A stretch of 64,000 bases of DNA from positions 11,109 to 75,108 of the forward strand of contig NZ_JAAWWD010000008.1 in NCBI RefSeq assembly GCF_021404545.1, in the 5' to 3' direction. Every line of letters begins with the position of its first letter. Position 1 is the stretch's first letter. A program made the translations under genes and the position numbers. The DNA comes from Aestuariivita sp. (lineage in GTDB: Bacteria > Pseudomonadota > Alphaproteobacteria > Rhodobacterales > Rhodobacteraceae). The notes beneath the pieces are model-generated. The model was not told the origin of the DNA. It did not search any database and saw only the letters and a program-made list of their open reading frames with translations. Shown one piece after another: positions 2,705-16,519 of the stretch.

Positions 2705-3811
2705 ATGACCATGCCTGTCCCGCCTGCCAAAATAAACGATCATCCGACGATCGCGCCCGAACGCAGACGGGCGCGCGGCGCGCGGCAGAACATCTCCGGC
2801 CGGTTCGATCTGGAACGGGTGGAGGAGGCAGACGGGTGGGACATGCCCGAAGAGCGTCCGGCCTTTCGCACCCAGATCAGTTTCGAGCGTCCGCGCAGCC
2901 TGATCAGCTATAACCGTTCACCCGATCTGCCATTCGACCGGTCGATCAATCCCTACCGCGGCTGCGAGCATGGGTGCATCTATTGCTTTGCCCGCCCCAG
3001 TCATGCCTATCTCGGCCTTTCTCCGGGCCTGGATTTCGAGACACGGCTGATTGCCCGGCCCGATGCCCCTAACGTGCTCGGCCGCGAGCTGTCCGCAAAA
3101 CGCTACCGCGTCGCACCGATTGCCATTGGCACCAATACCGATCCCTATCAGCCTTGCGAGGCGGATCTGTCGATCACGCGCGCCTGTCTTGAGGTGCTGT
3201 CCGCCTTCCGACATCCGGTGGCGATCGTGACCAAAGGCACATTGATCGAGCGGGATATAGATATCCTGGCGCCAATGGCGGCGCAGGGGCTGGCACGGGT
3301 GGGTGTCTCGCTGACCAGCCTTGATCCTGATCTGTCGCGTCGGATGGAACCGCGCGCGCCGACCCCCAAGCGCCGTCTCGCGACGATCCGCGCGCTCAGC
3401 CAGGCGGGGATCCCGGTGCGGGTCATGACCTCGCCTGTGGTGCCTGGATTGACGGATCATGAGATCGAGGCGCTGCTCAAGGCCGGGGCGGAGGCAGGCG
3501 CGTCTACCGCCAGCTGGATCATGTTGCGCCTGCCACGGGACGTGTCAGGTCTGTGGCAGGACTGGCTGGCCGAACACTACCCGGACCGCGCGGGCAAGGT
3601 CATGGCGCGTCTGCGCGAGATGCATGGCGGGCGCGATTATGATCCGCGCTGGGGCCACCGGATGCGGGGGGAGGGCAAGTATGCCGAACTGATCGCGCAG
3701 AGGTTCAAGGTGCATGCGCGCAAGCTGGGTCTGGATGACACTGCCGAACCGCTGCGGACGGATCTTTTTGCGATCCCGCCGCGCAAGGGCGATCAACTCA
3801 GCCTCTTTTAG
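2705..3811 (+). CDS. PA0069/SplB-like radical SAM protein
   Basis: SINPYRGCEHGCIYCFARPSH (CxxxCxxC), GTNTDPYQP and TKG motifs. Confidence 0.9.
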   Translation: MTMPVPPAKINDHPTIAPERRRARGARQNISGRFDLERVEEADGWDMPEERPAFRTQISFERPRSLISYNRSPDLPFDRSINPYRGCEHGCIYCFARPSHAYLGLSPGLDFETRLIARPDAPNVLGRELSAKRYRVAPIAIGTNTDPYQPCEADLSITRACLEVLSAFRHPVAIVTKGTLIERDIDILAPMAAQGLARVGVSLTSLDPDLSRRMEPRAPTPKRRLATIRALSQAGIPVRVMTSPVVPGLTDHEIEALLKAGAEAGASTASWIMLRLPRDVSGLWQDWLAEHYPDRAGKVMARLREMHGGRDYDPRWGHRMRGEGKYAELIAQRFKVHARKLGLDDTAEPLRTDLFAIPPRKGDQLSLF

Positions 3812-4044
3812 CTGCTGATGCCCTTGCGTTGTCGGTGCTGGCGACACCTTGGGTCTCTGAGCGGGCGCGGCGGACGGGACTTCCCGCGTTTTTGGCGGGC
3901 GCTCTGACTGTATCAGGGCCCCATGCACCGTTGCGATGACCCTGCGGGCGGAGTTGGCGCTGGTGTGTCCCTGTTCGAAAGATGCTGCCAAAATCCACTT
4001 GCCGTGCCGCAACTTGCCTGCAATAACGCGATCACCCTTCATGG

Positions 4045-4130
4045 GCCCAAGTGGCGGAATGGTAGACGCAGGGGATTCAAAATCCCCCGCCTTTGCGGGC
4101 GTGCCGGTTCGAGTCCGGCCTTGGGTACCA
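4045..4130 (+). tRNA. tRNA-Leu(CAA)
   Basis: Acceptor stem GCCCAAG/CTTGGGT; anticodon arm GGGGA-TTCAAAA-TCCCC; long variable arm; GGTTCGAGTCC T-arm; encoded CCA. Confidence 0.95.
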
Positions 4131-4167
4131 ATGGCTTAGCGGGTATTGGCTTGGCCCGAAGACCCCG

Positions 4168-4190
4168 CACTCCCATAGGCCACTCCCATA
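4168..4190 (+). repeat. Direct repeat CACTCCCATA x2, putative integrase arm-type sites
   Basis: Identical 10-mers at 4168-4177 and 4181-4190 between the tRNA end and the integrase stop. Confidence 0.5.
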
Positions 4191-4219
4191 CTCACGTTTC
4201 GTTTTCGTTCTGTTCCGAT

Positions 4220-5275
4220 TCAGGTTTCGCGCTTTCTCTGCCCGCTACGGGACAGTTTCTTACGGTTCGCCACCTTTCGATAGTACGCGATCATTTCCAC
4301 ACTTTGGTTGGTGATCGCCTGAATTTGGGCGTCGGTGCACCCCCCCTCGGCCAATTGCACTATCGCCAGTTTGCGCAACCCGTGCAGGACATACTTTGAA
4401 GCCTTGGCTTCGAGGGAGGCCCGCCACTTACGGAAAGCCTTTTCGACCGCATCATAGCCAACCGGTTCAGTCAAATTCTTTGCAATCACGAACGCGCCGG
4501 ACTTCCCGCGGTTGGCCAAGTAGCCACGCAAGCGATCCGGGCAATAGACCTCGAATTTCTCGGTACCTTTTTCGTCCAGGACCCACATCCACTCGCCTGA
4601 GAAATCGTCCTGCCGCATTGTGATCGCGGCGTTTGGGCGCTGTCCGGTGCCAAGGATTAACTCTGCGGCGCATTGGACCACCTCTGGCGCTGTCGGGAGC
4701 TTTTCAATCATCCAGTCAGGCCACGGCTCCCATTCTTTTTGCCGTCCGTAGAGGTCGATCTTTGCCGCCGGGTTCTTCTTGCCCTGCATTGGCCAGTCTT
4801 GCTTGTGTTCCGCGTAGTTCCACAACATGCGAACGGTGGTGATCAGCTTGTCAGCCTTGCGGGGCCTGTCGGCGTATTTGGAGTGCATGGCGCGAACCTG
4901 GGCGCGCGTCGTCGTGCGAACGTCCTTGTCTTTGTTCTTCGCCAGGATGAAATCCATGTCGCGGGCGTAGGACAATTTGCTTGATGGTTTCAGCTTCGAC
5001 TGAACGCGGGGATCTGTGCGCCAGAGCTTGACCAACTCGCCCCATGTGTATTTTGCCGGAGCCTTCTGCTTGAGGTGTTGCCCAGCCTCACACAGCCAAT
5101 ACTCATCATCGAGCTTCTTTCTGTCGCCTTCCCACCGCAAAAGGATTGCCCGCTCCTTCGTCTTACCGCCCTGGGTCCATGTGATCCGATGGTAGGGCTC
5201 CCAGACACTTCGGTACCGGTTCCACTTCCATGTGAGGTGAGGTTTGGTAATTCTGGGCTTCGGCTGGCGCTTCAT
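4220..5275 (-). CDS. Phage-type tyrosine integrase
   Basis: LGTGQR (catalytic R), LHGLRK (HxxR) and MIAYY (Y); transcribed toward the tRNA. Confidence 0.9.
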   Translation of the reverse strand: MKRQPKPRITKPHLTWKWNRYRSVWEPYHRITWTQGGKTKERAILLRWEGDRKKLDDEYWLCEAGQHLKQKAPAKYTWGELVKLWRTDPRVQSKLKPSSKLSYARDMDFILAKNKDKDVRTTTRAQVRAMHSKYADRPRKADKLITTVRMLWNYAEHKQDWPMQGKKNPAAKIDLYGRQKEWEPWPDWMIEKLPTAPEVVQCAAELILGTGQRPNAAITMRQDDFSGEWMWVLDEKGTEKFEVYCPDRLRGYLANRGKSGAFVIAKNLTEPVGYDAVEKAFRKWRASLEAKASKYVLHGLRKLAIVQLAEGGCTDAQIQAITNQSVEMIAYYRKVANRKKLSRSGQRKRET

Positions 5276-5481
5276 AGCTCAAAGGGTGCTTCTTGAGGGC
5301 GTGCGGCATCGCCCCTGACGATTGCACGCAAGTCGTCAACAATCCAGCGATCGTGCCCGCCAATGAGTACCGGACCCGGAAGGGAGCCGACCGACACCAA
5401 GCGCAGAAATTCAGCCGTAGGCATGTCCAGCATCCTGGCTGCGTTCCTATCGGATACTGCGATTGGCGTCAGGTCAGCCAT
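5272..5481 (-). CDS. Putative excisionase / AlpA-like HTH protein
   Basis: 69 aa, AARMLDM..GSLPGP...RW pattern; ATGA overlap with the integrase start. Confidence 0.65.
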   Translation of the reverse strand: MADLTPIAVSDRNAARMLDMPTAEFLRLVSVGSLPGPVLIGGHDRWIVDDLRAIVRGDAARPQEAPFEL

Positions 5482-5675
5482 CAGTTGTCCTTTTGCAATT
5501 CCAGCAGTATCGCCAGCGCCGCCTGGTAGTAATCCAAGAAGTTCGGGTGATCGGGTTCAACGGCAATGGTGATCCGGCAATTTTTGTCGCCTTCCACGCG
5601 AACACGATAGCGCGCCGATCCGTTGCGATTTGGGTCTGTTATGAATCCGGGAAGGTCCGCTTTCACTGGCGTCAC
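5481..5675 (-). pseudogene. Truncated N-terminus of a second phage integrase
   Basis: LPGFITDPNRNGSARYRVRVEGDK..ITIAVEPDHPNFLDYYQAA resembles the N-termini of alphaproteobacterial phage integrases (recalled, not searched); ends after 64 aa. Confidence 0.55.
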
Positions 5676-5929
5676 TTCGTTACCCAGTTCTTGGGGTGCA
5701 ACATTGCGGCAGGCGGACGGCCAATGTGCAGTGATTCGTTCCCGTCGCCATTGGGTGTGCCATCACCGGCGTCATCAACCGGATCGATGCCCTTTGTCAC
5801 AAAGGGCACGGTTTCAACGCGGACCGATCCGTCCTTTCTGACTGTTACCGCGCTTGGCGACAGACCGGCAGCCTGTGTCGCTTCGATCGCGCGTTGGATC
5901 GCGGCCTTGGTGACGTTCGGCGCGGGCAT
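5672..5929 (-). CDS. Small phage protein of the type preceding integrases (xis-like)
   Basis: MPAPNVTKAAIQRAIEATQAAGL..VTVRKDGSVRVE; stop overlaps the next start. Confidence 0.55.
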   Translation of the reverse strand: MPAPNVTKAAIQRAIEATQAAGLSPSAVTVRKDGSVRVETVPFVTKGIDPVDDAGDGTPNGDGNESLHIGRPPAAMLHPKNWVTK

Positions 5930-5930
5930 C

Positions 5931-6077
5931 CTAGCCGGTCACGCTCAGGAACTGGATGTCCTTCGCCGGATATGCCCTGCGGATACGGGCTATGGCCGCG
6001 TCGACGGACTCAGCTTTGGTGATATGTTGAACCAAGCCTTCATCGGCCAAATTGATAACGAGCGTGAAGCGTTTCAT
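5931..6077 (-). CDS. 48-aa phage hypothetical protein (not in ORF track)
   Basis: MKRFTLVINLADEGLVQHITKAESVDAAIARIRRAYPAKDIQFLSVTG; AAGGAAG RBS; ATGA overlap with the upstream gene. Confidence 0.55.
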   Translation of the reverse strand: MKRFTLVINLADEGLVQHITKAESVDAAIARIRRAYPAKDIQFLSVTG

Positions 6078-6301
6078 GCGTCTTCCTTTGTCTTCGGTTT
6101 CCAATAGAACGGCGCGGCCTCTGCCACATGGTCGGCGATAATGTCTTTTGTCTTTCGGGCAATCCGGCCATCACCATGGCAGGAATTGCATTTGTGTTTC
6201 TTAGGGTTGCGTGCGCCCCAAAAGAAATCGCGATCGGCGTCGCGGCGCAGCTGGCAGGCGGGGCAATCAAGGCCGTTTCCGCACAGGTACTTATCAGGCA
6301 C
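6074..6301 (-). CDS. Phage hypothetical protein with two CxxC motifs
   Basis: GTG start overlapping the upstream stop; CPAC and CNSCHGDG (DnaJ zinc-finger-like). Confidence 0.55.
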   Translation of the reverse strand: MPDKYLCGNGLDCPACQLRRDADRDFFWGARNPKKHKCNSCHGDGRIARKTKDIIADHVAEAAPFYWKPKTKEDA

Positions 6302-6632
6302 CGCCCCGGTCCTTCCGTGCCCACATATCGATCGTGGCGCTGATGCGGGAAAACACGCCCGCGCCGGGCGTGCCCTTGCGACCACGGTGCATGCGCCACA
6401 CGGTCAGATGGTGGTAGAGTTGCGCGCCGCGATTGCGGGCCATCTTCCACCAGTCCGTCCGACAGGTGCTGTTGCAGAACCGCATGCCGGGCCGGTATGC
6501 CGTAGGATCGATGCGTTCCCGGCAATAGTCACAGTATCCCACGCGCAGCGGGCGAAGCGGCTCTACGTCACCGTGGTCCTTCAATCGGCCACGTGCTGGC
6601 GTTTGAGCCGTTTCTGGGGGCGCATGAGTCAT
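6294..6632 (-). CDS. Phage hypothetical zinc-finger protein
   Basis: CDYC...FCNSTCR motif; ATGA overlap at 6629-6632. Confidence 0.6.
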   Translation of the reverse strand: MTHAPPETAQTPARGRLKDHGDVEPLRPLRVGYCDYCRERIDPTAYRPGMRFCNSTCRTDWWKMARNRGAQLYHHLTVWRMHRGRKGTPGAGVFSRISATIDMWARKDRGGA

Positions 6633-6841
6633 GCGCTTGACGTCTTGCCGGGGCAACCGGGCTGCACGGTCCCGCGCGGACATCCGCAGTCGGGCCATTT
6701 CGGACACTCAAAAACGGGCAAGCAATCATCCGCCCCTTTGGGCGCACGGGGGCCGATCACGGCCCGATTGGTGATACCCCCGCGCTCCCCGGTTCGGGCT
6801 GGCCTGAACAGCCCTCGGATACGCGGCATCACGCGGAGCAT
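6629..6841 (-). CDS. Small Cys-rich phage hypothetical protein
   Basis: CPKWPDCGCPRGTVQPGCPG; fits a coupled gene chain. Confidence 0.4.
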   Translation of the reverse strand: MLRVMPRIRGLFRPARTGERGGITNRAVIGPRAPKGADDCLPVFECPKWPDCGCPRGTVQPGCPGKTSSA

Positions 6842-7101
6842 TGCGCCGCCTCAGCGTCATTTGCTTCCAGGATGTTGAGAGCCGCTTTCAACCAGTTCTT
6901 GGGCAAGTCTTTGGCATCGTCAGCAAAGCAGGACACTTGCCACAGCGATATCTCAAAGAGCACTGGATTGTATTGCCGGGGATCATCCGGCACGGTCCAG
7001 ACACCGTTGTTCTGGCACAGGTTTTTGATCTGTAGGAACTGGGTGTCCGTGGACATGGCTTCGAGCCATTCGACGGTTGTGCGGATCCTGTCGATGTCCA
7101 T
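6829..7101 (-). CDS. Phage hypothetical protein
   Basis: 90-aa ORF with GGGA-type RBS, globular composition, in a coupled chain. Confidence 0.6.
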   Translation of the reverse strand: MDIDRIRTTVEWLEAMSTDTQFLQIKNLCQNNGVWTVPDDPRQYNPVLFEISLWQVSCFADDAKDLPKNWLKAALNILEANDAEAAQCSA

Positions 7102-7113
7102 AAGAACGGTCCC

Positions 7114-7443
7114 TTATTGTGCCCTAAAATTGATCCCGCCATAACCGGCATGATCGGAGTTGTTTCGGATCGTGTTTGCAGGCGGATTCTTCGCCCACCT
7201 TTTTTCGTCGTGTCTGGCCATGGCGCGCCGCTCTTCTGGCGTGGCGTGTTCACAGGTGATCGCGTGGTTTTCGCCTGCCGACAGGATGAACCCAAGCTGC
7301 CCAGACCCGTGCCTGTTGTAGACGCGCCAGTACCGACCGCAGAAAGGACATTGGGCCTCTGTGTTCGACAGCTTGCTTATCCTGCGCTCATTTCGAAACT
7401 CAGCCTTCGCAGCACGATCTTTCGCCCGTTCGCGCCGCTGTCG
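7114..7443 (-). pseudogene. 5'-truncated phage ORF (CPFCG motif)
   Basis: Open frame RQRRERAKDRAAKAEFRNERR...QCPFCGRYWRVY...INFRAQ*; no upstream start before an in-frame stop; begins at the junction with the tail-fibre fragment. Confidence 0.4.
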
Positions 7444-7466
7444 ACCTCTATAACGCCCGTCGCGAT

Positions 7467-8360
7467 TTGGGGGAGGCCATCGCCATCTCGGCCCAGGACA
7501 TGCGGGCGCTGGTCGTCGAGGATCGGGTGGCGATTGCCAGCCTCGAAACCTTACTCGCAGCCGCGATCAACAACACCGCCGCATCGCTCAAGTCCGAGCA
7601 GCTGGTGCGATCCGAGGCCGACGATGCCCTTGCCCAGGATATCGTGACCGTAAAGGCCAGTTTGGAAAGCGCGGAGGGCGATATCGCCGCGAACGCCACG
7701 GCGACCAGCGACCTCGCTGTTCGGACAACGGCGGCCGAGGGCGCGATCACCAGTCAGGGCCAGAGCATCGATACGCTTCAGGCCGGGCTGACCACCGCGC
7801 AAGGCAACATTGCTGCGAACGCCACGGCCACCAACAACCTCGCTGTTCGGACAACGGCGGCCGAGGGCGCGATCACCAGCCAGGGCCAGAGCATCGATAC
7901 GCTTCAGGCCGGGCTGACCACCGCGCAAGGCAACATTGCTGCGAACGCTACGGCCACCAGCGACCTCGCTGTTCGGACAACGGCGGCCGAGGGCGCGATC
8001 ACCAGCCAGGGCCAGAGCATCGATACGCTTCAGGCCGGGCTGACCACCGCGCAAGGCAACATTGCTGCGAACGCCACGGCCACCAGCGGATTGACGGTCC
8101 GCACCACGGACGCCGAGAATCAGTTGGCGAGCCAGGCAACGCAGCTTACCAGCCTCACCTCGACCGTGGGCGCGCAATCCACGACGATCCAGTCGCAGCA
8201 GACCTCGATCGATGGCATCGAGGCGGAATACGCCCTGCGTATCGACAATAACGGTGTCGTCTCCGGCGTCGTGGTCCGCTCCGATCTGGACAACGCAGGT
8301 GTGCCCACAACGGCTGCGGTCTATCAGGTCGACAAGTTCTCGATCATCGCGCCGGGCGAT
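7467..8360 (+). pseudogene. Internal fragment of phage central tail fibre / host-specificity protein (gpJ-like, DUF1983-like C-terminal part)
   Basis: Ala/Thr-rich heptad repeats followed by GIEAEYALRIDNNGVVSG...VYQVDKFSIIAPG; lacks a proper N-terminus; C-terminus runs out of frame into methylase DNA. Confidence 0.7.
7689..8088 (+). repeat. Three near-identical 126-bp (42-aa) tandem repeats plus a partial fourth
   Basis: GCGAACGC[C/T]ACGGC units start at 7689, 7815, 7941 and 8067. Confidence 0.97.
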
Positions 8361-8833
8361 CCATCCGCCTCCTCTATCTGCAACGCCTGGCCTTCGGGGG
8401 GAGGGCGGACGGGGTCTTTGGTGTGGCAACCGGAAGGACGCTCTTCTCGCTGTCGCGATTGGAGCCTCTTTTGGATGCCGCGCATGCGCGGCTGGATGGT
8501 GTGGTCCTCGAAAACCTGGACTGGTCCGAGCTGGTGCGGCGCTATGACAGTTCCGGTTCTCTGTTCTACCTCGATCCACCTTATTGGGGCGGGGAAGACG
8601 ATTACGGCAAGGATCTCTTCCAAAGACCCGATTACGCCAGGATGGCTGCCCAATTGGCCGACATCGAGGGCGCGTTCGTGCTCTCCATCAATGACCGGCC
8701 CGAAACGCGCGCTCTGTTTGCGTCATTTGAGATCGAGGCTGTGTCGCTGAAATACAGCGTGTCCCGGGGGGACGCGACCGACGCGGCCGAGTTGCTTATC
8801 TCCAACCGCAAACCCGACGACCTGCTGCTGTGA
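8357..8833 (+). pseudogene. C-terminal half of a Dam-like (D12 class) DNA adenine methyltransferase
   Basis: Continuous frame RSIRLLYLQRLAFGG...VVLENLDW...LFYLDPPYW (motif IV)...FVLSIND...ELLISN; N-terminal SAM-binding motif absent. Confidence 0.85.
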
Positions 8834-8876
8834 TCGGGGTGTTTTCTAGTTGGTGGTGTCAGTGCCATGATGGGGC

Positions 8877-9203
8877 ATGTCCGAATTCACAATGCGCCCA
8901 TGCCGGATCGGCGGCCGAACAGCGCCGAATGACTACCTTGTCTCGTACCAGGGCAGCCCAATTGGCCGCATCTTTCATCAAGAACTCGGCTTTGCGCGGT
9001 GGTGGATTTGGGCGATCCAGACCTTTCCGGCAGCAGATGGCCGATCAGACACGCTTGAACAGGCGCAGGCGCAGCTCAAGGCGGCTGTGCTTGCTTTGCC
9101 CGACGGTAGGAGGATCAAGGCGGAGGGGAGGGTGGCCACCCTCGCGTGTCCGCTTAGCGCAGAAACTGGACTTTGCAAAGTCAAGATCACTCGGCCCCTC
9201 TGA
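8877..9203 (+). CDS. Small phage-associated hypothetical protein; C-terminus probably altered
   Basis: IGGRTAPNDYLV..G.PIGRIF....WWIW...G.SDTLEQAQAQLKAA; last ~20 codons run through palindrome cluster 1. Confidence 0.5.
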   Translation: MSEFTMRPCRIGGRTAPNDYLVSYQGSPIGRIFHQELGFARWWIWAIQTFPAADGRSDTLEQAQAQLKAAVLALPDGRRIKAEGRVATLACPLSAETGLCKVKITRPL

Positions 9204-10896: not shown

Positions 10897-10950
10897 GCAG
10901 TCATTAGAACATCTCGCAGCGTTCAGCACTTTGGGCTCGGAGCCGACCTC
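10879..10950. repeat. Cluster 2 of degenerate palindromes
   Basis: ...GGGTAAGCAGTCATT (contains the Lrp stop codon) and CAGCACTTTGGGCTCGGAGCCGAC (10924-10947). Confidence 0.5.
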
Positions 10951-11036
10951 AGATGCGACGCAGCATGTTGTGATACACTGCCTCGTCAACGTCGGGTTGG
11001 CGTTGCGGCGGGGCGTGGTGGATTGGAGGACCCACC

Positions 11037-11669
11037 ATGCGCATCCCGAATTTACCCGCCATTCGCGCCTGTCGCCCTGCTTGGAACAAAGGGCGCATCG
11101 TCGGCCAGAAAAGGCCCTTGCTGCCGAAACACGTCTGGGCGATCCGTGTTCGATTAGATATCGCGGACAATTTCCGTGACCTAGCGCTCTTCAACCTTGC
11201 CATCGACAGCAAGCTGCGCGGTTGTGATCTGGTCAAACTTGTGGTGGCCGACGTTTATGCCGCTGGTCAGGTAAAAGAACGAACATCAATCATCCAAAGC
11301 AAAACGCAAAAGCCGGTGCGTTTCGAGATTACGGAAGGAACTCGAAAATCACTCCTGAGGTGGATGGAGGAACCATTGATGGTCGGTTCGGAATACCTCT
11401 GGCCCGGGCGTTTTCACGAGCGCCTTCACATCTCGACACGGCAATACGCACGACTGGTCCGCGAATGGGTCAAGTCGATTGGGCTGGAGCCAAGTGCGTA
11501 TGGCACCCACTCGATGCGCCGAACCAAGGTTTCGCAGATTTACAAGAAGACCGGTAATCTGCGGGCGGTTCAACTGTTGCTGGGGCAAACAAAGATGGAC
11601 AGCACGGTCCGATATCTTGGAGTCGAATTGGAAGATGCCTTAACAATCTCGGAATCCGTTGAAATCTGA
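11037..11669 (+). CDS. Compact tyrosine recombinase (essentially catalytic domain only)
   Basis: PAWNKGRIVGQKRPL N-terminus, SKLRGCDLV (R), HSMRRTK (HxxR), LLGQTKMDSTVRYLG (Y); GGAGG RBS. Confidence 0.9.
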   Translation: MRIPNLPAIRACRPAWNKGRIVGQKRPLLPKHVWAIRVRLDIADNFRDLALFNLAIDSKLRGCDLVKLVVADVYAAGQVKERTSIIQSKTQKPVRFEITEGTRKSLLRWMEEPLMVGSEYLWPGRFHERLHISTRQYARLVREWVKSIGLEPSAYGTHSMRRTKVSQIYKKTGNLRAVQLLLGQTKMDSTVRYLGVELEDALTISESVEI

Positions 11670-11675
11670 AAATCA

Positions 11676-11697
11676 GGGCCGCCTTCGCGGGCGGCCC
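11676..11697 (+). terminator. GC hairpin directly after the recombinase stop
   Basis: GGGCCGCC-ttcgcg-GGCGGCCC; no clear U-tract. Confidence 0.45.
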
Positions 11698-11756
11698 ATA
11701 GCTGCCTTTGGCTAATACATCTCAATGCTGCGGTCGCAGCCCGCATCTCGGACATT
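11683..11756. repeat. Cluster 3 of degenerate palindromes
   Basis: ...CCCATAGCTGCCTTT (to 11709) and GCTGCGGTCGCAGCCCGCATCTCGGACATT (11727-11756), a close match to 9248-9276. Confidence 0.6.
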
Positions 11757-11761
11757 AGTCA

Positions 11762-12409
11762 TCATGCAGCCATATAGGTTTTTAGTTGAACCTGGTTATC
11801 CAAAGCGTCCCCAAACATTCGCATCAAAGCGATGGTTGTGTTTGTGACTTCATCTAAGTCGTCTTTCGCAATGAAGGTGTCTTCACCATGGGCAATCGCA
11901 TTGCGCCGTTTCAGAAGCATTGCATCAATAAAGGCCTCATGTTCAATGAATTCTTGGTAAGAAATGTCGCAAACCAAACATATCTCTCGTAGCACCTCAG
12001 AATTTAAGTTCGATTTGGTGTTGATCAGATCATCGTTCACTCGACTGAACTGCTTGTTTGAGGACGTAAGGATTTCATCTAGAAGGTTACACCTCGACTC
12101 GATACTGCCCTTGCTCTTCGATAGCGCCGTCAGCCGCGGCAAAAAGTAGTTCTTCAAAAACTGACTGTTGAGACTTGTGTATGGATGCTTACGCAAAGCG
12201 ACATGTATCAAATACAGTTTTGCAGAATTTCTCACATGACCCTCCCAATGAGCATATGAGATTGTAACTAGTGCCCTTAGCAGGACTTTCCCCAAGTTCT
12301 GATCTGCCCTTCGAATCGCGGTCTTTAGATCCGATATCTCGCGGATACGCCAAGTCCTGTCCGCGGTTACAAGACTCGAGAAGTCGTCCGCGGTATATGG
12401 CTTGCTCAT
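11762..12409 (-). CDS. HEPN-domain nuclease (MAE_28990/MAE_18760-like)
   Basis: YAHWEG N-terminal motif, NTKSNL, and RNAIAHGE (RxxxxH) motif; ATGA overlap with the DUF262 gene. Confidence 0.8.
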   Translation of the reverse strand: MSKPYTADDFSSLVTADRTWRIREISDLKTAIRRADQNLGKVLLRALVTISYAHWEGHVRNSAKLYLIHVALRKHPYTSLNSQFLKNYFLPRLTALSKSKGSIESRCNLLDEILTSSNKQFSRVNDDLINTKSNLNSEVLREICLVCDISYQEFIEHEAFIDAMLLKRRNAIAHGEDTFIAKDDLDEVTNTTIALMRMFGDALDNQVQLKTYMAA

Positions 12410-13515
12410 GGCTTGAACCACTCGCTACCAAAAGGCACTGTTTTCTGAATCCGCGTTGTTCCGCGCATGCCGGGTGACACGAAACTTTCAACGTCTGGCT
12501 GCTCCCAAAATGCCTGAGACTTGTCCCGCACAAAATTTGCCGGGTCTGCCTGCTGCTGTATTGCCGTAAGGTTCTTTGCGACTCCTACTGCGATCGCTTC
12601 TAAGCCCACCAGTCCTACCCTTCCAGAGTAGTTTCCATCTTGGAAACGCCGGAGAGCATTCCCGCCCGCGGCTTGATGCAGAAGGTCTATAGTGCTGTTG
12701 ATAGTCGTGGAGGCTCCGGCAATATCAGCGTCCATCGCCAATTTTACGATACCGTCGTCTATGTATTCGCCAACGTCTAGGGTTCCATCGTAATTTACCA
12801 AAGTGTGAACCAGCAATCTTACCGCCATCTCAATGTGTCGTTGCTTTTCTGTTTGACCGTCGCTCAGGCCCGTTACCGAAAGAAATTTGTCACTCTCAGC
12901 CGCGGCTTTAATCGCCCTAAAGTAGTCAGCATTGACCATCAAAATTATGCAATTTCGTATCTCTTGGGCGTTCGCGGCCGTCCCCCCAGCATTTAGTCGT
13001 TGAAACAGGTCAAACTTCGTCATGCTATCGCTCGGACGCTTGAGGATTTCTACTCCAATGCGAGACCTCTTGATGGCTAGCTGAAGGCTTCGATCAAGTT
13101 CGAGTTGTTCATTCTCTTCCACGTCAGCAATTGCTGCGCCTTTTTCCCAAACTGTATTGCGGAGCGACGGCAGGTATTTTGTTGCTTCCAAGATGGATGG
13201 TGGGCAGGCCGCGCCATTTTCGTTTTTCAATTTACCCATGAACTCAAGGATTGATGAAACCCTCTGCAGCCCGTCTACGAGCTCCCACTGCCCGTTTTCT
13301 AGCTCGTAGACGAAGATAGATGGCAGAGGAATGCCCAGCAGCAGAGACTCGATCAATTTTGATTTCTGGCCTATTTCCCATCTAAACAGTCGTTGGAATT
13401 CCGGAGCAATTATTATGTCGCCGTCATCGTAGAGATTCACAAGCTCACCAATAGACATCTGAAAGGCGTCTGTACGAACATTCCGTTGTGCGGTTTCGAT
13501 TTCTTCAAGTAGCAT
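12406..13515 (-). CDS. DUF262 (ParB/Srx-like, GmrSD N-terminal) domain protein
   Basis: PEFQRLFRW, LIESLLLGIPLPSIF, VDGLQR and FQRLNAGG motifs; start at MLLEEI. Confidence 0.88.
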   Translation of the reverse strand: MLLEEIETAQRNVRTDAFQMSIGELVNLYDDGDIIIAPEFQRLFRWEIGQKSKLIESLLLGIPLPSIFVYELENGQWELVDGLQRVSSILEFMGKLKNENGAACPPSILEATKYLPSLRNTVWEKGAAIADVEENEQLELDRSLQLAIKRSRIGVEILKRPSDSMTKFDLFQRLNAGGTAANAQEIRNCIILMVNADYFRAIKAAAESDKFLSVTGLSDGQTEKQRHIEMAVRLLVHTLVNYDGTLDVGEYIDDGIVKLAMDADIAGASTTINSTIDLLHQAAGGNALRRFQDGNYSGRVGLVGLEAIAVGVAKNLTAIQQQADPANFVRDKSQAFWEQPDVESFVSPGMRGTTRIQKTVPFGSEWFKP

Positions 13516-13732
13516 TCGTTTCCCAGCTTCCTTGGTGTTGCATGTAAAAGAGAAGCGTCGCCGCATCTCAATGAGGAAGTACCCGCCAGACATGTCTTCT
13601 GTCACGTTCAGCCATTATGACCACATAAACCGCTGCCGCAATATCTGCACTCCCAAACGGTATTTTTAGCATCGCTTAAGCGAGCGTCTGGTTTCACAGA
13701 ATGACCAAGATCACTCCGCAGCCGCAGCAAAC

Positions 13733-13897: not shown

Positions 13898-14450
13898 ATT
13901 TTGTTGAAGAAGTCGCCGAGATTTGAGGTTTTGCCTGCTTGGCGACTTCAATCGCAAGCTTCTTGATCCGCCCGTTGCATTGGGCGGCTTGTTGGTCTGT
14001 CGTTTTGCCGTTTCAGATCATATCGCGATCCTCGTTTCGTGCGTCTTGGGTCTTAGTTTTGCAAGTTTTCGGAGGTTCTGAGCGATTGCTGCGAGCGTAA
14101 ATTCGTCCTGTACACCACATGGCCCTCGAAGTCTGAGCCGCCCGAGGCCGAGAATGCGTTTGAGGTGAGCGAAGAGCATCTCAACCTTTTTGCGTTTGGC
14201 CTGGGCCTTGGGGTTGAAGGGAGACTTTGCAGCCAGTCGGGCGAAGTCGCGTGCGTCCTCGTGTTCCTCACGACCGATAAAGCGCGTATTTGTGTTTGGA
14301 CAGCATTTTGGTTTCGACGGGCAGGCATCGCATATGGCTTTGGTGGCGCGGTATCTACGGCGACCTGTTTTGGGTTCTTTTCTGCGCGGGTCGGCATCAA
14401 AACCGACCTTTCTTGGTGGGTTTGTTGTGCAAGTGGATGACCAGGGCGGG
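13898..14450 (-). mobile_element. IS1182-like remnant: transposase C-terminal fragment plus probable terminal IR
   Basis: CDACPSKPKCCP...RKKVEMLFAHLKRILGLGRLRLRG...FTLAAIAQNLRKLAK; IR-like GACTTCTTCAACAAAAT on the minus strand at 13898-13914; 5' part missing. Confidence 0.75.
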
Positions 14451-14630
14451 ACCTTCCCGTCGCTCTCTATGTCTACAGACTCCAATATGCTATAGTTGAT
14501 GTAATTGGCCCGTTCGTGCCGGGACGACCGATGGCGCGGGTTGAAATCTGAACAAAGCGATTGGTGCATAGGGTTCTCAAACACACCAGATGCTCAGCTA
14601 GAAATCTTGAAGACTTTAGGATTAGTTGCG

Positions 14631-14957
14631 TTGTCGAAGAAGATTTTATTTTGCATTGCCGCAATAATCGCAGTGTTTACTTCTGCCCTTAAGGCGGAAA
14701 CGGTAGTCGAGTTTGGGTGCATACTTCTCGACACAGATCACCCGGACGTGGATCGAGACTGGACGGAAGCATTTGTTCCATTCTGTGATATCAGACCGGA
14801 CCAATCGGTAGTCCAATGCTATGCTCTAACGTTCGAAGGGGAATGGGAAGCGACTGATGCTTTTGCGCCAGACCTAGTTCTGGACAGACAAGAGGGTGGC
14901 AAAAGACTTTGCCCTGCAGGGACGGACGATGGAAAACTCCCAACCATCCGTGGATGA
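14631..14957 (+). CDS. Small secreted Cys-containing hypothetical protein
   Basis: TTG start; signal peptide SKKILFCIAAIIAVFTSALKA; four Cys in the mature part. Confidence 0.55.
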   Translation: MSKKILFCIAAIIAVFTSALKAETVVEFGCILLDTDHPDVDRDWTEAFVPFCDIRPDQSVVQCYALTFEGEWEATDAFAPDLVLDRQEGGKRLCPAGTDDGKLPTIRG

Positions 14958-15783
14958 CCCGAAGCCCGAGATTGGCGGGTCGGAGGATGCAGTAGCCATC
15001 CCCAAGATCGAAGTCAGACTGACGTCCGATCCATCCCCGCCGTCATTCGCTTCGCGCCTGACTTCTGCCATCGCCCCCATTCTTCTAGTCGGGGGGTACA
15101 TCGGCGCGTTGCTGCTGAGCCTTGGATGGAGCTTTGCTTGGCATTGGTTCGCGACTTGGAACGTGCCTTTCACAAGCCTTGGCGTAGGTCCTGATGTACT
15201 TCTGGAATACGGACGTATCGTTGTTCTACATCACTGGTGGCAATTTCTAGTATGGGTCGCCCTTGGCGTTGCGGGGATGTGGGCGATCATTTACCTCAAT
15301 CTTGGCAAAGGGTTCCTTACTCTATTTTGTCTCTCTACATTTCTGGTTCCGTGGCTTGCCAGTCATTCTTTTGGCAAGCGGTTGGCCGACGCCGAGGTCC
15401 AGCAGATACAGCGGGAACGGTTTGTTGGACTGCCCGTCGTGAACCTATACCTCGAACCTGGGCTTGATGAGGCGCTGAACGAACGAGCGCGAGCTGCTCT
15501 CGTCACGGGTCCCAACTTGTGTCACCGGTTGCTGTACAAGGCACTAGATGGGCTTTGGCTTTTGCGATTGCCCCGGTATCGGCCGACCCTTCGGCGTGTC
15601 AGCCCAATACAATCACTTCCTTCGCACGCTCTTTCAGGATCGCGCAGATCTGGGCGGCCAGTTCCCGAAACTCGGCCTCGCGCGCGGTGCCCTTTCGCCA
15701 GATCATTCCAATGGTTCGCGACGGCGGAGAGCCGCGAAACTGGCGCGCGACGACGATGTCCTGATGCGCCACCTCGGATTTGA
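14929..15783 (+). CDS. Hypothetical multi-pass membrane protein; C-terminus overlaps the lysR 3' end (probably truncated near 15.6 kb)
   Basis: About three hydrophobic helices (LLVGGYIGALLLSLGW..., WWQFLVWVALGVAGMW..., LTLFCLSTFLVPWL); alternative GTG start at 14950. Confidence 0.55.
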   Translation: MENSQPSVDDPKPEIGGSEDAVAIPKIEVRLTSDPSPPSFASRLTSAIAPILLVGGYIGALLLSLGWSFAWHWFATWNVPFTSLGVGPDVLLEYGRIVVLHHWWQFLVWVALGVAGMWAIIYLNLGKGFLTLFCLSTFLVPWLASHSFGKRLADAEVQQIQRERFVGLPVVNLYLEPGLDEALNERARAALVTGPNLCHRLLYKALDGLWLLRLPRYRPTLRRVSPIQSLPSHALSGSRRSGRPVPETRPRARCPFARSFQWFATAESRETGARRRCPDAPPRI

Positions 15784-16519
15784 CATAGAGCGCGGGCATC
15801 AGCGACAGGCCCATGCCCATCGCCACCATCTGGCGCAGCGTATCCAGGGATGTGCCTTCATAGTCGCGCGACAGGTCCGCGCCGTATTGCTCGCAGATGC
15901 GCCGCACCTGTTCATAGAGCTTGTGGCCAGGTTCCAGCGACAAAATCGTCTCGCCCCGCAGCATCGCCGGCGCGATCTCACGTTCGGCTGCGTAAGGATG
16001 ATCGCAAGGCAGGACGATCTCGATGGGTTCGCGGAAGATCGACAGGCTTTCAAAGTCGGCCCGCCGCACGGGCAGCGGGAAAAACAGCAGATCCACCGTG
16101 CCGTCCGACAGGCTTTGCAGCAGATAGTCGGGCAGCCCTTCGCGCATATAGAGTTTCAGGGCAGGGTGGCTTTGATGCAGGCCAGGCACGATCAGCGGCA
16201 ACAGGTACGAGCCCAGCGACTGCACCACGCCAACACGGATCGTGCTTTGCAGATGGCTGTGGCTTTGCGCGGCCAATGTGTGGATTTCGTCCACTTCGCG
16301 CAGCGCGCGGCGGGCCCGATCGACCACGGCCTGACCCAGCGGTGTGATGATCACATGGGATCGGCTGCGCTCGACCAGTTCTGCGCCCAGTTTCAGCTCC
16401 AGACCTTTGAGCTGTGCGCTGAGCGTTGGCTGGGTGACATGGCACATTTCGGCCGCGCGCCGGAAATGCAGGGTGTCGGCCAGGGCAATGAGGTACCTGA
16501 GTTGCTGTAAAGTCGGCAA
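15599..16519 (-). CDS. OxyR-like LysR regulator lacking the peroxidatic Cys
   Basis: TLQQLRY..HFRRAAE.C.VTQPTLSAQ HTH; GTSLDTLRQMVAMG; LEPGHKLYEQVRRIC where OxyR has GHCLRDQ....C. Confidence 0.85.
   Translation of the reverse strand: MPTLQQLRYLIALADTLHFRRAAEMCHVTQPTLSAQLKGLELKLGAELVERSRSHVIITPLGQAVVDRARRALREVDEIHTLAAQSHSHLQSTIRVGVVQSLGSYLLPLIVPGLHQSHPALKLYMREGLPDYLLQSLSDGTVDLLFFPLPVRRADFESLSIFREPIEIVLPCDHPYAAEREIAPAMLRGETILSLEPGHKLYEQVRRICEQYGADLSRDYEGTSLDTLRQMVAMGMGLSLMPALYVKSEVAHQDIVVARQFRGSPPSRTIGMIWRKGTAREAEFRELAAQICAILKERAKEVIVLG

Follow-up and report, generated by a model that had tools for sequence, protein, structure and literature searches.

In the 64,000-nucleotide stretch of DNA analysed here (the window), two intact minus-strand genes encoding a DUF262 protein (gene A, 369 aa) and a HEPN protein (gene B, 215 aa) probably constitute an anti-phage module of the PD-T4-2 class that is self-contained and horizontally mobile. 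An earlier note on this DNA had read the pair as an anti-phage system with a DUF262 NTPase as sensor and a HEPN RNase as effector, and this remained the best-supported reading, on the strength of the match to PD-T4-2, the conserved pairing and the mobile cassette. Judged from its sequence, the locus is a divergent representative of a kind of defence system that is already known.

Organization of the locus and its protein domains

The features of the cassette and its immediate edges are as follows.

12406..13515, minus strand: gene A, DUF262 protein, 369 aa; ParB/Srx-like NTPase domain (about residues 23-191) and helical C-terminal domain (about 192-369)
11762..12409, minus strand: gene B, HEPN protein of 215 aa, RNase-like and stand-alone, from the RiboL-PSP / MAE_28990 clade; Rx4H at R169..H174
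12406..12409, minus strand: ATGA stop/start overlap, predicted translational coupling of A and B, read from the sequence
13516..13732, minus strand: upstream leader of 217 nt with putative promoter, co-transferred with the genes; blastn homology to Tateyamaria sp. ANG-S1 (86.6%) stops at 13732
11701..11761, minus strand: 3' tail of the cassette with palindrome GCTGCGGTCGCAGC (11727-11740); cassette homology begins at 11701, aligned with other copies
11676..11697, no strand assigned: GC-rich hairpin GGGCCGCC-N6-GGCGGCCC in the gap between the HEPN gene and the recombinase gene that converges on it; resembles a terminator when read on the minus strand

The open reading frames, the junction and the GC windows bore out the earlier description of an intact, ATGA-coupled operon that is AT-richer than its neighbours. 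The plus-strand letters 'tcat' at 12406-12409 read ATGA on the coding strand, so that the stop codon of the DUF262 gene overlaps the start codon of the HEPN gene, and this 4-nt overlap was the most frequent A/B junction among related loci. GC content was 0.48-0.51 over 11501-13500, compared with 0.56-0.65 in most flanking windows. The gene A frame is open up to a GTG at 13605; its homologues begin at the ATG at 13515.

Gene A matched the Pfam family GmrSD_N (5.6e-25) and gene B matched both HEPN_RiboL-PSP (PF18735, 1.3e-36) and HEPN_MAE_28990 (PF18737, 1.7e-28), all far beyond chance. By these profiles, gene B encodes a canonical HEPN protein of the PF18735/PF18737 type. Two PADLOC models, NsnA (2e-52) and PD-T4-2_A (4.7e-33), also matched gene A, both over the full length. 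The QR, DGxQR and FxRLN motifs that had been recognized in gene A (F40-Q41-R42, D81-G82-L83-Q84-R85 and F171-Q172-R173-L174-N175) were invariant in 23 homologues, as was the RxxxxH motif of gene B (R169-N-A-I-A-H174, Rx4H; family pattern RNxIAHG), together with Y52-A-H-W-E-G57, in 20. A Pfam scan of gene A at E<=1 found no DUF1524 or HNH domain, in agreement with the earlier observation that the DUF262 protein has no C-terminal HNH; residues 192-369 form an all-helical domain in the AF2 model.

The best PDB fold matches of the gene A model (AF2, pLDDT 88) were ParB-N, BrxU, ParB-CTP, PadC and Noc, and the C-terminal helical domain is probably DNA-binding. The gene B model (AF2, pLDDT 91.8) was all-alpha with eight helices. 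Its top match in BFVD was a phage MAE_28990-like HEPN protein (TM 0.69, probability 1.00), and Foldseek against the PDB returned unspecific helical bundles only (best E 0.29). Sequence searches of the PDB found no relatives of either A or B.

Pairing and selection

A DUF262 gene lay directly upstream in 22 of the 23 loci with a homologue of the gene B protein and in all seven loci with its distant homologues; at every related locus examined, the gene directly downstream of the DUF262 gene encoded a RiboL-PSP-type HEPN protein with Rx4H. Other DUF262 genes within the same NsnA-HMM score band had an adjacent downstream Rx4H protein in 15 of 16 cases, with the 16th partner truncated where its contig ends, and all 10 partners scanned against Pfam matched PF18735 or PF18737. 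Divergence of A and B was tightly matched (r = 0.95, 253 pairs). Relative to the Tateyamaria copy, dN/dS was 0.11 for A and 0.05 for B, values indicating that both genes are under purifying selection.

These ratios, taken against the closest copy, speak against the view that the pair is a non-functional passenger, decaying on a degraded island beside an IS remnant and a short gene for a recombinase. A transposase fragment and the short recombinase gene do flank the pair, and one related locus (L023) holds a degraded pair, but both reading frames here are full-length relative to their homologues and every invariant residue is retained, so that we consider a passenger extremely improbable.

The mean pairwise distance was 0.40 for A versus 0.51 for B, making A the better conserved partner. 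This is one of three points in favour of the DUF262 protein as the effector, that is, a ParB-like nuclease or NTP-depleting enzyme directed at phage DNA or nucleotides and providing direct rather than abortive immunity, with the HEPN protein as a regulatory or RNA-binding accessory. The others are that ParB-like domains have been classed as DNases ('ParB nuclease'; PMC3710099) and that the DUF262 domains of BrxU and SspE hydrolyse NTP (PMC10952713). GmrSD, BrxU and SspE, however, cleave through a fused DUF1524 domain that is missing here. Moreover, the HEPN Rx4H motif was invariant in the close family and present in 15 of the 16 divergent partners (the 16th cut by the contig end), and this argues for catalysis by B. 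An effector role for the DUF262 protein is accordingly given little weight.

Spread of the cassette

Tateyamaria shares positions 11701-13732 alone, with different flanks on either side. On this comparison, the pair moves as one 2-kb unit between unrelated contexts and was horizontally acquired. No DNA match to the cassette was found in 30 relatives, nor any homologue of more than 33% identity in any other of 400 sampled genomes of the phylum. The two-gene design itself was more widespread: about 6% of the sampled Pseudomonadota genomes (n=400) had such a pair, compared with 0.5% detected by the PADLOC PD-T4-2_B model. It occurred twice in this genome and was also present on plasmids of Actinomycetota, Bacillota and Spirochaetota.

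The neighbourhoods of homologous pairs were varied. One locus had a STAND NTPase, a methyltransferase and an integrase as neighbours; other pairs lay in a P4-like AlpA/VapE/integrase element with an AAA_15 ATPase, in a DUF3987/integrase element, on a Corynebacterium plasmid near PaeR7I restriction-modification genes and an SNF2 protein, and on a 5.7-kb mobilisable Enterobacter plasmid. Some homologues were flanked by housekeeping genes, with neither a defence gene nor a mobile element as neighbour.

Carriage on integrative elements and on plasmids such as the small Enterobacter one is what might be expected of a toxin-antitoxin or addiction module, in which the HEPN toxin would be neutralized by the DUF262 protein encoded upstream, the pair would stabilize its carrier and phage defence would be incidental. 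The translational coupling of the genes, with the putative neutralizer first, fits such a module, and there are well-known precedents for a HEPN toxin with a cognate partner, such as HEPN-MNT and the proposed MAE_18760-ParA dyads (PMC3710099). Nevertheless, the 'antitoxin' would be a protein of 369 aa with invariant NTP-binding motifs, better conserved than its toxin (0.40 vs 0.51) and unlike the labile antitoxins of type II systems. Many copies are also chromosomal, with no element remaining to stabilize, and the distant relative PD-T4-2 is anti-phage in its native strain. We therefore judge an addiction module unlikely, though somewhat less so than an effector role for the DUF262 protein, and favour the anti-phage module.

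Cassette ends

Conservation of the leader was limited to the closest copy in the leader alignment. A sigma-70 scan of the upstream region gave no consensus match, a scan that is uninformative for an alphaproteobacterium. The leader region had no Rfam match and no tandem repeats, which rules out an RNA antitoxin or a repeat like those of type III TA systems.

At the 3' end, the palindrome GCTGCGGTCGCAGC is probably the terminator hairpin of the operon; palindromes of this type occurred at the frequency expected by chance. In the second copy of the recombinase element, the hairpin GGGCCGCC-N6-GGCGGCCC is likewise present at the 3' end. The short inverted repeats close to the operon were unremarkable. 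The cassette had been described as lying between palindrome clusters, a view that neither these repeats nor the chance rate of the 3'-end palindrome supports.

Genomic surroundings

The following features were annotated around the cassette.

4045-4130, plus strand: tRNA-Leu(CAA) (ARAGORN)
4220-5275, minus strand: integrase after the tRNA-Leu (PF00589; phrog_1, 1.5e-26)
11037..11669, plus strand: tyrosine recombinase, 210 aa, of a repeated mobile element (about 10930-11745) (PF00589, 9.7e-14; phrog_216 integrase, 6.4e-24)
14018..14584, minus strand: DDE transposase remnant (IS fragment), C-terminal part only (PF13751 DDE_Tnp_1_6, 1.2e-14)

The tRNA-Leu and the integrase next to it (4045..5275) are the probable left end of a genomic island that holds the cassette. 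On the right, a LysR gene (15599-16519) is conserved in genomes of the same genus, in which the island is not conserved. The end of the DDE transposase remnant is multi-copy in relatives. The recombinase element has a second intact copy at the end of another contig of the same genome (C24) and several copies in relatives; the genome holds two recombinase copies only.

The island had been called prophage-derived, an origin for which we found no support: it has a tRNA-Leu, an integrase, a small recombinase and a transposase remnant, and no phage structural module was found in the surroundings. The sole phage hint was a PHROG tail-protein match on short internal stretches of the ORF at 7467-8750. 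Searching the INPHARED phage genomes with the HEPN protein (tblastn) gave no match. Separately, PHROG families exist for A and B, and B has a structural homologue in a metagenomic phage.

An integron-like cassette system was also considered and found unsupported, as there is a single cassette, the palindrome pattern is as frequent as expected by chance and only two recombinase copies are present. The Tateyamaria copy likewise counts against it, since for about 8 kb in both directions it has no homologous recombinase.

Proposed mechanism and significance

In the anti-phage module that we propose, A and B would form a complex that holds B inactive. During infection, A may use its ParB-like and C-terminal domains to sense phage DNA or an intermediate of replication. 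The sensing of modified DNA in particular, as suggested in the earlier note, has no specific support at the locus. An NTP-dependent conformational or oligomeric switch in A would then license the composite HEPN active site, for which a dimer is normally required, and the resulting cleavage of RNA (tRNA, mRNA or rRNA) would stop translation and lead to abortive infection.

A broader reading, which we put forward tentatively and consider doubtful, is that DUF262(+ParBDB)-RiboL-PSP-HEPN pairs belong to a single large superfamily of minimal sensor-effector defence modules, deeply diverged and for the most part un-annotated. PD-T4-2 would be a single compact branch of such a superfamily. In an unrooted tree the NsnA clade stands beside or within the HEPN-paired lineages, and the sensor of the three-gene Menshen system may be derived from the DUF262-HEPN radiation. 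The ParB-like NTP-gated switch might then assemble or license the HEPN RNase dimer directly on phage DNA; if true, ParB-type clamp chemistry would be coupled in a new way to RNA degradation.

The locus exposes a gap in annotation: the PADLOC models leave the system uncalled and match component A alone, and the same two-gene design occurs in roughly one in 16 sampled genomes of the phylum. As a highly conserved, compact subfamily with high-confidence models, it would be a good object for studying signalling from a ParB-like NTPase to an RNase without the ATPase transducer of Menshen. The pair is also an additional candidate phage-resistance determinant for marine roseobacters, located on a tRNA-linked island.

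Comparison with known systems

PD-T4-2, from E. coli ECOR65 (Vassallo et al. 2022; PMC9519451), is a DUF262 and HEPN pair that protects against T4 when cloned and whose deletion in the native strain increases plaquing by T4. Its genes are arranged as in the present locus: co-oriented, with a DUF262 gene without DUF1524 first and a small stand-alone Rx4H HEPN gene second. Both systems occur on mobile elements, and gene B directly matches the two families, PF18735 (97.8%) and PF18737 (96.9%), that head the published HHpred result for PD-T4-2B (PMC9519451). Gene A aligned over its full length with a genuine PD-T4-2_A-type protein (BLASTP, 25% identity, E 2e-20), and its residues 21-355 aligned with positions 39-349 of 363 of the PADLOC PD-T4-2_A model. 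Checking PADLOC for an existing name, as the earlier note had advised, gave matches for component A (PD-T4-2_A, NsnA) and none for component B.

For B, the narrow PADLOC PD-T4-2_B model, which does recover true members elsewhere, matched neither gene B (E<=1) nor any protein of the whole genome (E<=10), and BLASTP gave no significant alignment between gene B and PD-T4-2_B. Alignment of the two HEPN family alignments by hhalign gave a probability of 0.5%, or 1.6% with seven distant homologues added, when the Rx4H region alone was aligned. A profile of compact RiboL-PSP partners matched the PD-T4-2_B family (probability 77%, E 2e-5), with Rx4H among the 103 aligned columns. The homology of the B components is thus drawn from this bridging profile and the published HHpred result, the direct comparisons being negative. 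The systems differ further in the size of B (215 aa here versus about 169 aa), in the position of gene A on a deep branch of the DUF262 tree separate from PD-T4-2_A, and in the host, here a Roseobacteraceae-like alphaproteobacterium. In the literature searched, neither PD-T4-2 nor the RiboL-PSP/MAE_28990 HEPN proteins were found to have been studied mechanistically.

The operon association has been in print since 2013, when Anantharaman et al. (PMC3710099) listed operons in which RiboL-PSP and MAE_28990 HEPN genes are combined with ParB-like ones. Gene B matches both Pfam models from that work and gene A is the ParB-like partner; the association appears there as a table entry only, with no experiment, system name or analysis of the partner's C-terminal domain. 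Because the kind is thus published, and has been named and experimentally validated as PD-T4-2, the novelty implied by the first reading of the locus was overstated.

With GmrSD, BrxU and SspE, gene A shares an N-terminal DUF262 domain with the QR, DGxQR and FxRLN motifs, and BrxU was among its best fold matches. In contrast to these proteins, no DUF1524 His-Me nuclease is fused to it and the RNase-type effector is a separate protein; membership was rejected on the absence of DUF1524. AbiF/AbiD systems likewise use a HEPN RNase-type effector, and RiboL-PSP HEPN has been called their distant relative (PMC3710099). They differ from the present pair, which has no RNA-antitoxin repeats or structured RNA upstream and in which the regulator is presumably the DUF262 partner.

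Menshen (NsnABC; Millman et al. 2022; Li et al. 2025, PMC12065111) resembles the locus in its sensor, as gene A has the NsnA architecture of ParB-DUF262 plus ParBDB, for which Li et al. proposed a sensor role; the NsnA HMM aligned over residues 10-357. Its score for gene A was 176.7 bits versus 367-481 bits for true NsnA, and the NsnA clade (100/98 support) leaves out the gene A protein. The neighbours are the recombinase gene and the IS remnant, with no adjacent NsnB (ABC ATPase + DUF3696) or NsnC; matches to the NsnB model, which also matches 14 of 14 control genomes, lie on other contigs only. Membership in Menshen was rejected on the score band, the tree position and the missing NsnB and NsnC. 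Unlike in Menshen, the sensor here is coupled directly to its effector, a HEPN protein.

The DUF262-HEPN gene pair and its products

Two minus-strand open reading frames (ORFs), here called A and B, occupy 11762-13515:

12406-13515, minus strand: gene A, 369 aa, DUF262 protein, start at the ATG at 13515
11762-12409, minus strand: gene B, 215 aa, HEPN protein (P0002), start at the ATG at 12409

Gene A is also readable from a GTG at 13605; the alignment of all 22 intact homologues begins at the ATG at 13515, giving 369 aa. Both ORFs are full length and the TGA of A overlaps the start of B as ATGA (plus-strand tcat at 12406-12409), which confirms the intact, translationally coupled pair described in an earlier note. 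The pair was also correctly described as AT-richer than its neighbours, with a GC content of 0.48-0.51 across 11501-13500 versus approximately 0.56-0.65 in the surroundings.

Protein A matched Pfam GmrSD_N (DUF262; 5.6e-25) at residues 23-191 and no second domain at E<=1, in agreement with the earlier statement that it lacks a C-terminal HNH domain. Protein B matched HEPN_RiboL-PSP (1.3e-36) and HEPN_MAE_28990 (1.7e-28), both end to end; no NCBIfam model was found for either protein. The DUF262 and RxxxxH motifs named previously are real and invariant among homologues: FQR (residues 40-42), DGLQR (81-85) and FQRLN (171-175) in A, and RNAIAH (169-174) as well as YAHWEG (52-57) in B. A carries a ParB-like NTP-binding domain whose motifs are intact, and the catalytic dyad of the HEPN protein B is invariant.

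Confident AlphaFold2 models of both proteins were built with family alignments. The B model is an eight-helix bundle (pLDDT 91.8) for which no significant neighbour was found among PDB structures; its top match in a viral structure library was to a phage protein whose annotation reads MAE_28990/MAE_18760-like HEPN (TM 0.69, probability 1.00). The A model (pLDDT 88) begins with an alpha/beta domain and continues as a helical domain, and its best PDB folds, all with weak E-values, were of ParB type (pNOB8 ParB-N, BrxU, CTP-bound ParB, PadC, Noc and KorB). PDB sequence searches with A and with B returned nothing.

Conservation of the pair

When one genome per species was scanned for relatives of B, 23 loci were found in Alpha-, Beta-, Gamma- and Deltaproteobacteria and Gemmatimonas. 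A full-length A homologue lay directly upstream in 22 of the 23, and the 4-nt overlap seen in the window was the commonest junction among them. The 23rd locus (L023, 5048-6348, in an alphaproteobacterial MAG) has the pair in decayed form, with both the DUF262 and the HEPN gene fragmented. Distant B homologues (26-33% identity) occurred in 7 of 400 sampled genomes of the phylum, each with an A homologue directly upstream. As pairwise distances of A and B were correlated (r = 0.95 across 23 pairs), the two genes are co-inherited and not shuffled.

The closest copy is that of Tateyamaria sp. ANG-S1, with amino-acid identities of 90% (A) and 93% (B). Relative to this copy, A has a dN/dS of 0.11 and B one of 0.05, and both genes are therefore under purifying selection; these values contradict the idea that the pair is in decay, which is very improbable. 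The B family is large: one database lists 1,244 of its clusters (90% identity) and a second lists 1,511 representatives (50% identity; 828 with E<=1e-10), and nearly all of these representatives are stand-alone proteins of approximately 215 aa.

Mobility and genomic surroundings

DNA similarity to the Tateyamaria copy (86.6%) coincides exactly with 11701-13732, comprising both genes, a 217-nt leader and a 61-nt tail, and the flanks are unrelated. A and B move as a 2-kb cassette. No DNA match to it was found in 30 relatives, including three same-genus genomes, which have the LysR and Usp genes to the right of the cassette in common with the window.

Neighbours and locations of other copies
Tateyamaria: STAND NTPase, H-NS, methyltransferase, integrase
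Mesorhizobium: AlpA/VapE/integrase element with a resolvase and an AAA_15 ATPase
Pseudomonas: DUF3987/integrase element
Asticcacaulis and Methylosinus: plain housekeeping genes
Corynebacterium atrinae plasmid: PaeR7I restriction-modification system, SNF2 protein
Other plasmids: Corynebacterium callunae, Bacillus, Enterobacter, Psychrobacter, Leptospira

Among these other plasmids, the region was read for the one from Enterobacter. On this Enterobacter cloacae plasmid, CP056768.1 (5.7 kb, mobilisable, Col-type), the HEPN homologue at 46-717 is annotated as hypothetical and neighbours mobilisation genes and a RelE/ParE pair.

In the window, the cassette probably lies inside an island that runs from a tRNA-Leu (4045-4130) and an integrase gene (4220-5275) and ends before LysR at 15599. 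The arrangement at 4045-5275, with a 351-aa integrase encoded on the opposite strand immediately after tRNA-Leu(CAA), is that of a classic island junction; no Pfam family was found for the ORFs downstream of the integrase (5463-9203). The cassette is bordered by a gene for a 210-aa tyrosine recombinase on one side and an IS remnant on the other. Since no phage structural module was found around it in the window and palindromes around the operon do not exceed the frequency expected by chance, its earlier description as part of a prophage-derived island between palindrome clusters is unsupported.

A 427-aa ORF at 7467-8750 (plus strand), without a Pfam family, matched PHROG 'tail protein' families (7e-25) over short internal stretches only, and the gene call is uncertain because an antisense ORF (7551-8579) overlaps it. 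The IS remnant (14018-14584, minus strand) is the C-terminal part of a DDE_Tnp_1_6 transposase, and its terminal ~135 nt (14058-14194) are multi-copy in the same genome and in relatives. Between this remnant and LysR, a 295-aa ORF without a Pfam family (14896-15783, plus strand) may not be a real gene, because its 3' part overlaps LysR on the other strand.

The recombinase gene, which is intact, belongs to a repeated element of ~820 bp (10930-11745) whose 3' hairpin is conserved. The same genome has a second copy (82% amino-acid identity) at the very end of contig C24, and relatives carry several copies per genome, many at contig ends. The final ~45 nt of the element's homology (11701-11745), including the palindrome GCTGCGGTCGCAGC, are also part of the cassette's homology with Tateyamaria; no homologous recombinase was found within ~8 kb on either side of the Tateyamaria copy. 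The overlap is explained either by a common terminator hairpin or by former travel of the cassette with the recombinase element.

Relation to Menshen and other HEPN-paired DUF262 proteins

The PADLOC HMM for NsnA, the DUF262 sensor of Menshen (NsnABC), was used to survey 401 sampled genomes of the phylum. Scores were bimodal, with true NsnA at 367-481 bits and a second band at ~175-242 bits that included A of the window (176.7), PD-T4-2_A proteins (174.8 and 196.7) and many others. In a maximum-likelihood tree of 45 DUF262 proteins, NsnA formed a single clade (support 100/98), PD-T4-2_A its own deep lineage, and A grouped with every partner of a P0002-like HEPN in a separate clade that was well supported. 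Neither NsnB nor NsnC is encoded next to the pair. Membership of Menshen was rejected because of this score band, the tree position outside the NsnA clade and the lack of adjacent NsnB/NsnC.

The partner genes of 16 further lower-band DUF262 proteins were examined. Each of the 16 was directly followed by a gene encoding 145-360 aa, and an RNxIAH-like R-x4-H motif was present in the C-terminal third of 15 products, the sixteenth being cut by a contig end. PF18735 or PF18737 was matched by 10 of 10 partners scanned against Pfam. The PADLOC PD-T4-2_B model matched none of eight; seven had no match to any model and one had a weak Cas13a match (1e-4). The lower band consists of DUF262 proteins with an adjacent RiboL-PSP HEPN, not of Menshen. 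DUF262 proteins paired with a HEPN make up a broad radiation: about 24-26 of the 400 genomes sampled (~6%) encode one, and only two of these genomes are recognised by the PD-T4-2_B model. For these proteins PADLOC has an annotation gap, with a risk of partial 'NsnA' calls.

A second DUF262-HEPN pair, of a different subfamily, is present on contig C68 of the same genome (locus L082, 3164-5087, minus strand), beside an IS30-like transposase, an SNase-domain protein and a HerA/TrwB-like ATPase:

3900-5087, minus strand: DUF262 gene; PADLOC NsnA 2.4e-58, PD-T4-2_A 1.4e-27
3164-3889, minus strand: HEPN gene, 241 aa; RNAIAH at residue 197; PF18735 6.8e-10

Proposed function

Homology to PD-T4-2, an anti-phage DUF262-HEPN pair of E. 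coli, and genomic context support the earlier interpretation of the pair as an anti-phage defence system. In BrxU and SspE, NTP hydrolysis by the DUF262 domain drives a conformational or oligomeric switch (PMC10952713). HEPN domains dimerise to build composite RNase sites and are used as effectors in abortive infection and in CRISPR ancillary systems (PMC3710099; DARNA preprint). A and B show obligate co-occurrence, coupling and co-divergence. We propose that A would keep B inactive, that sensing of DNA and NTP by A during infection would license B, and that licensed B would cleave RNA and so arrest translation. Sensing of modified DNA had also been suggested; the data give no specific indication of it.

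That A itself might be the nuclease effector is improbable, and disfavoured because Rx4H is conserved in B, even across the most divergent partners. Somewhat less improbable, though still unlikely, is an addiction module with B as the toxin and A as the 'antitoxin'; A is a poor fit for that role, being large, enzyme-like and more conserved than B. The pair is of value both for the annotation gap and as a well-conserved model for studying the mechanism of PD-T4-2.

Relation to PD-T4-2

This operon type was described in 2013 (Anantharaman et al., PMC3710099). PD-T4-2, found in E. coli ECOR65 and annotated 'DUF262, HEPN', spans 1,540 bp with two ORFs (Vassallo et al. 2022, PMC9519451). It protects K-12 from T4, its deletion from ECOR65 resulted in more T4 plaquing, and the top HHpred matches of PD-T4-2B were PF18735 (97.8%) and PF18737 (96.9%) (PMC9519451). 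In reviews, PD-T4-2, Menshen and Dazbog are classed together as DUF262 systems that lack DUF1524. The literature search yielded no study of the mechanism of PD-T4-2 or of the HEPN clade of B.

Whether PADLOC already names the pair, a check raised in the earlier note, received a divided answer: A was matched (NsnA 2e-52, PD-T4-2_A 4.7e-33), whereas B was matched by no model, and the PD-T4-2_B model had zero matches in the whole genome. Two genuine PD-T4-2-type loci retrieved with that model (L024 and L025) each encode an A protein of ~360 aa and a 169-aa B protein that carries HRDNAAH. A of the window aligned over its full length with A of L024 (25% identity, E 2e-20), and it has a C-terminal helical domain in common with NsnA and PD-T4-2_A. 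No significant pairwise similarity was found between B (215 aa) and the genuine PD-T4-2-type B (169 aa). Profile-profile comparison of the two B families was likewise negative, at 0.5% probability, or 1.6% with distant homologues added, where only the Rx4H region aligned. A bridging profile of compact (161-208 aa) DUF262-partner proteins (seven members, six shown to match PF18735) aligned with the PD-T4-2_B family at 77% probability (E 2e-5) over 103 columns, including the helix-2 motif and Rx4H. On the basis of this alignment and the published HHpred matches, we place B and PD-T4-2_B in one HEPN clade, as remote relatives. The pair, missed by current PADLOC models, is a new, divergent member of the kind whose distant branch, PD-T4-2, was validated in 2022.
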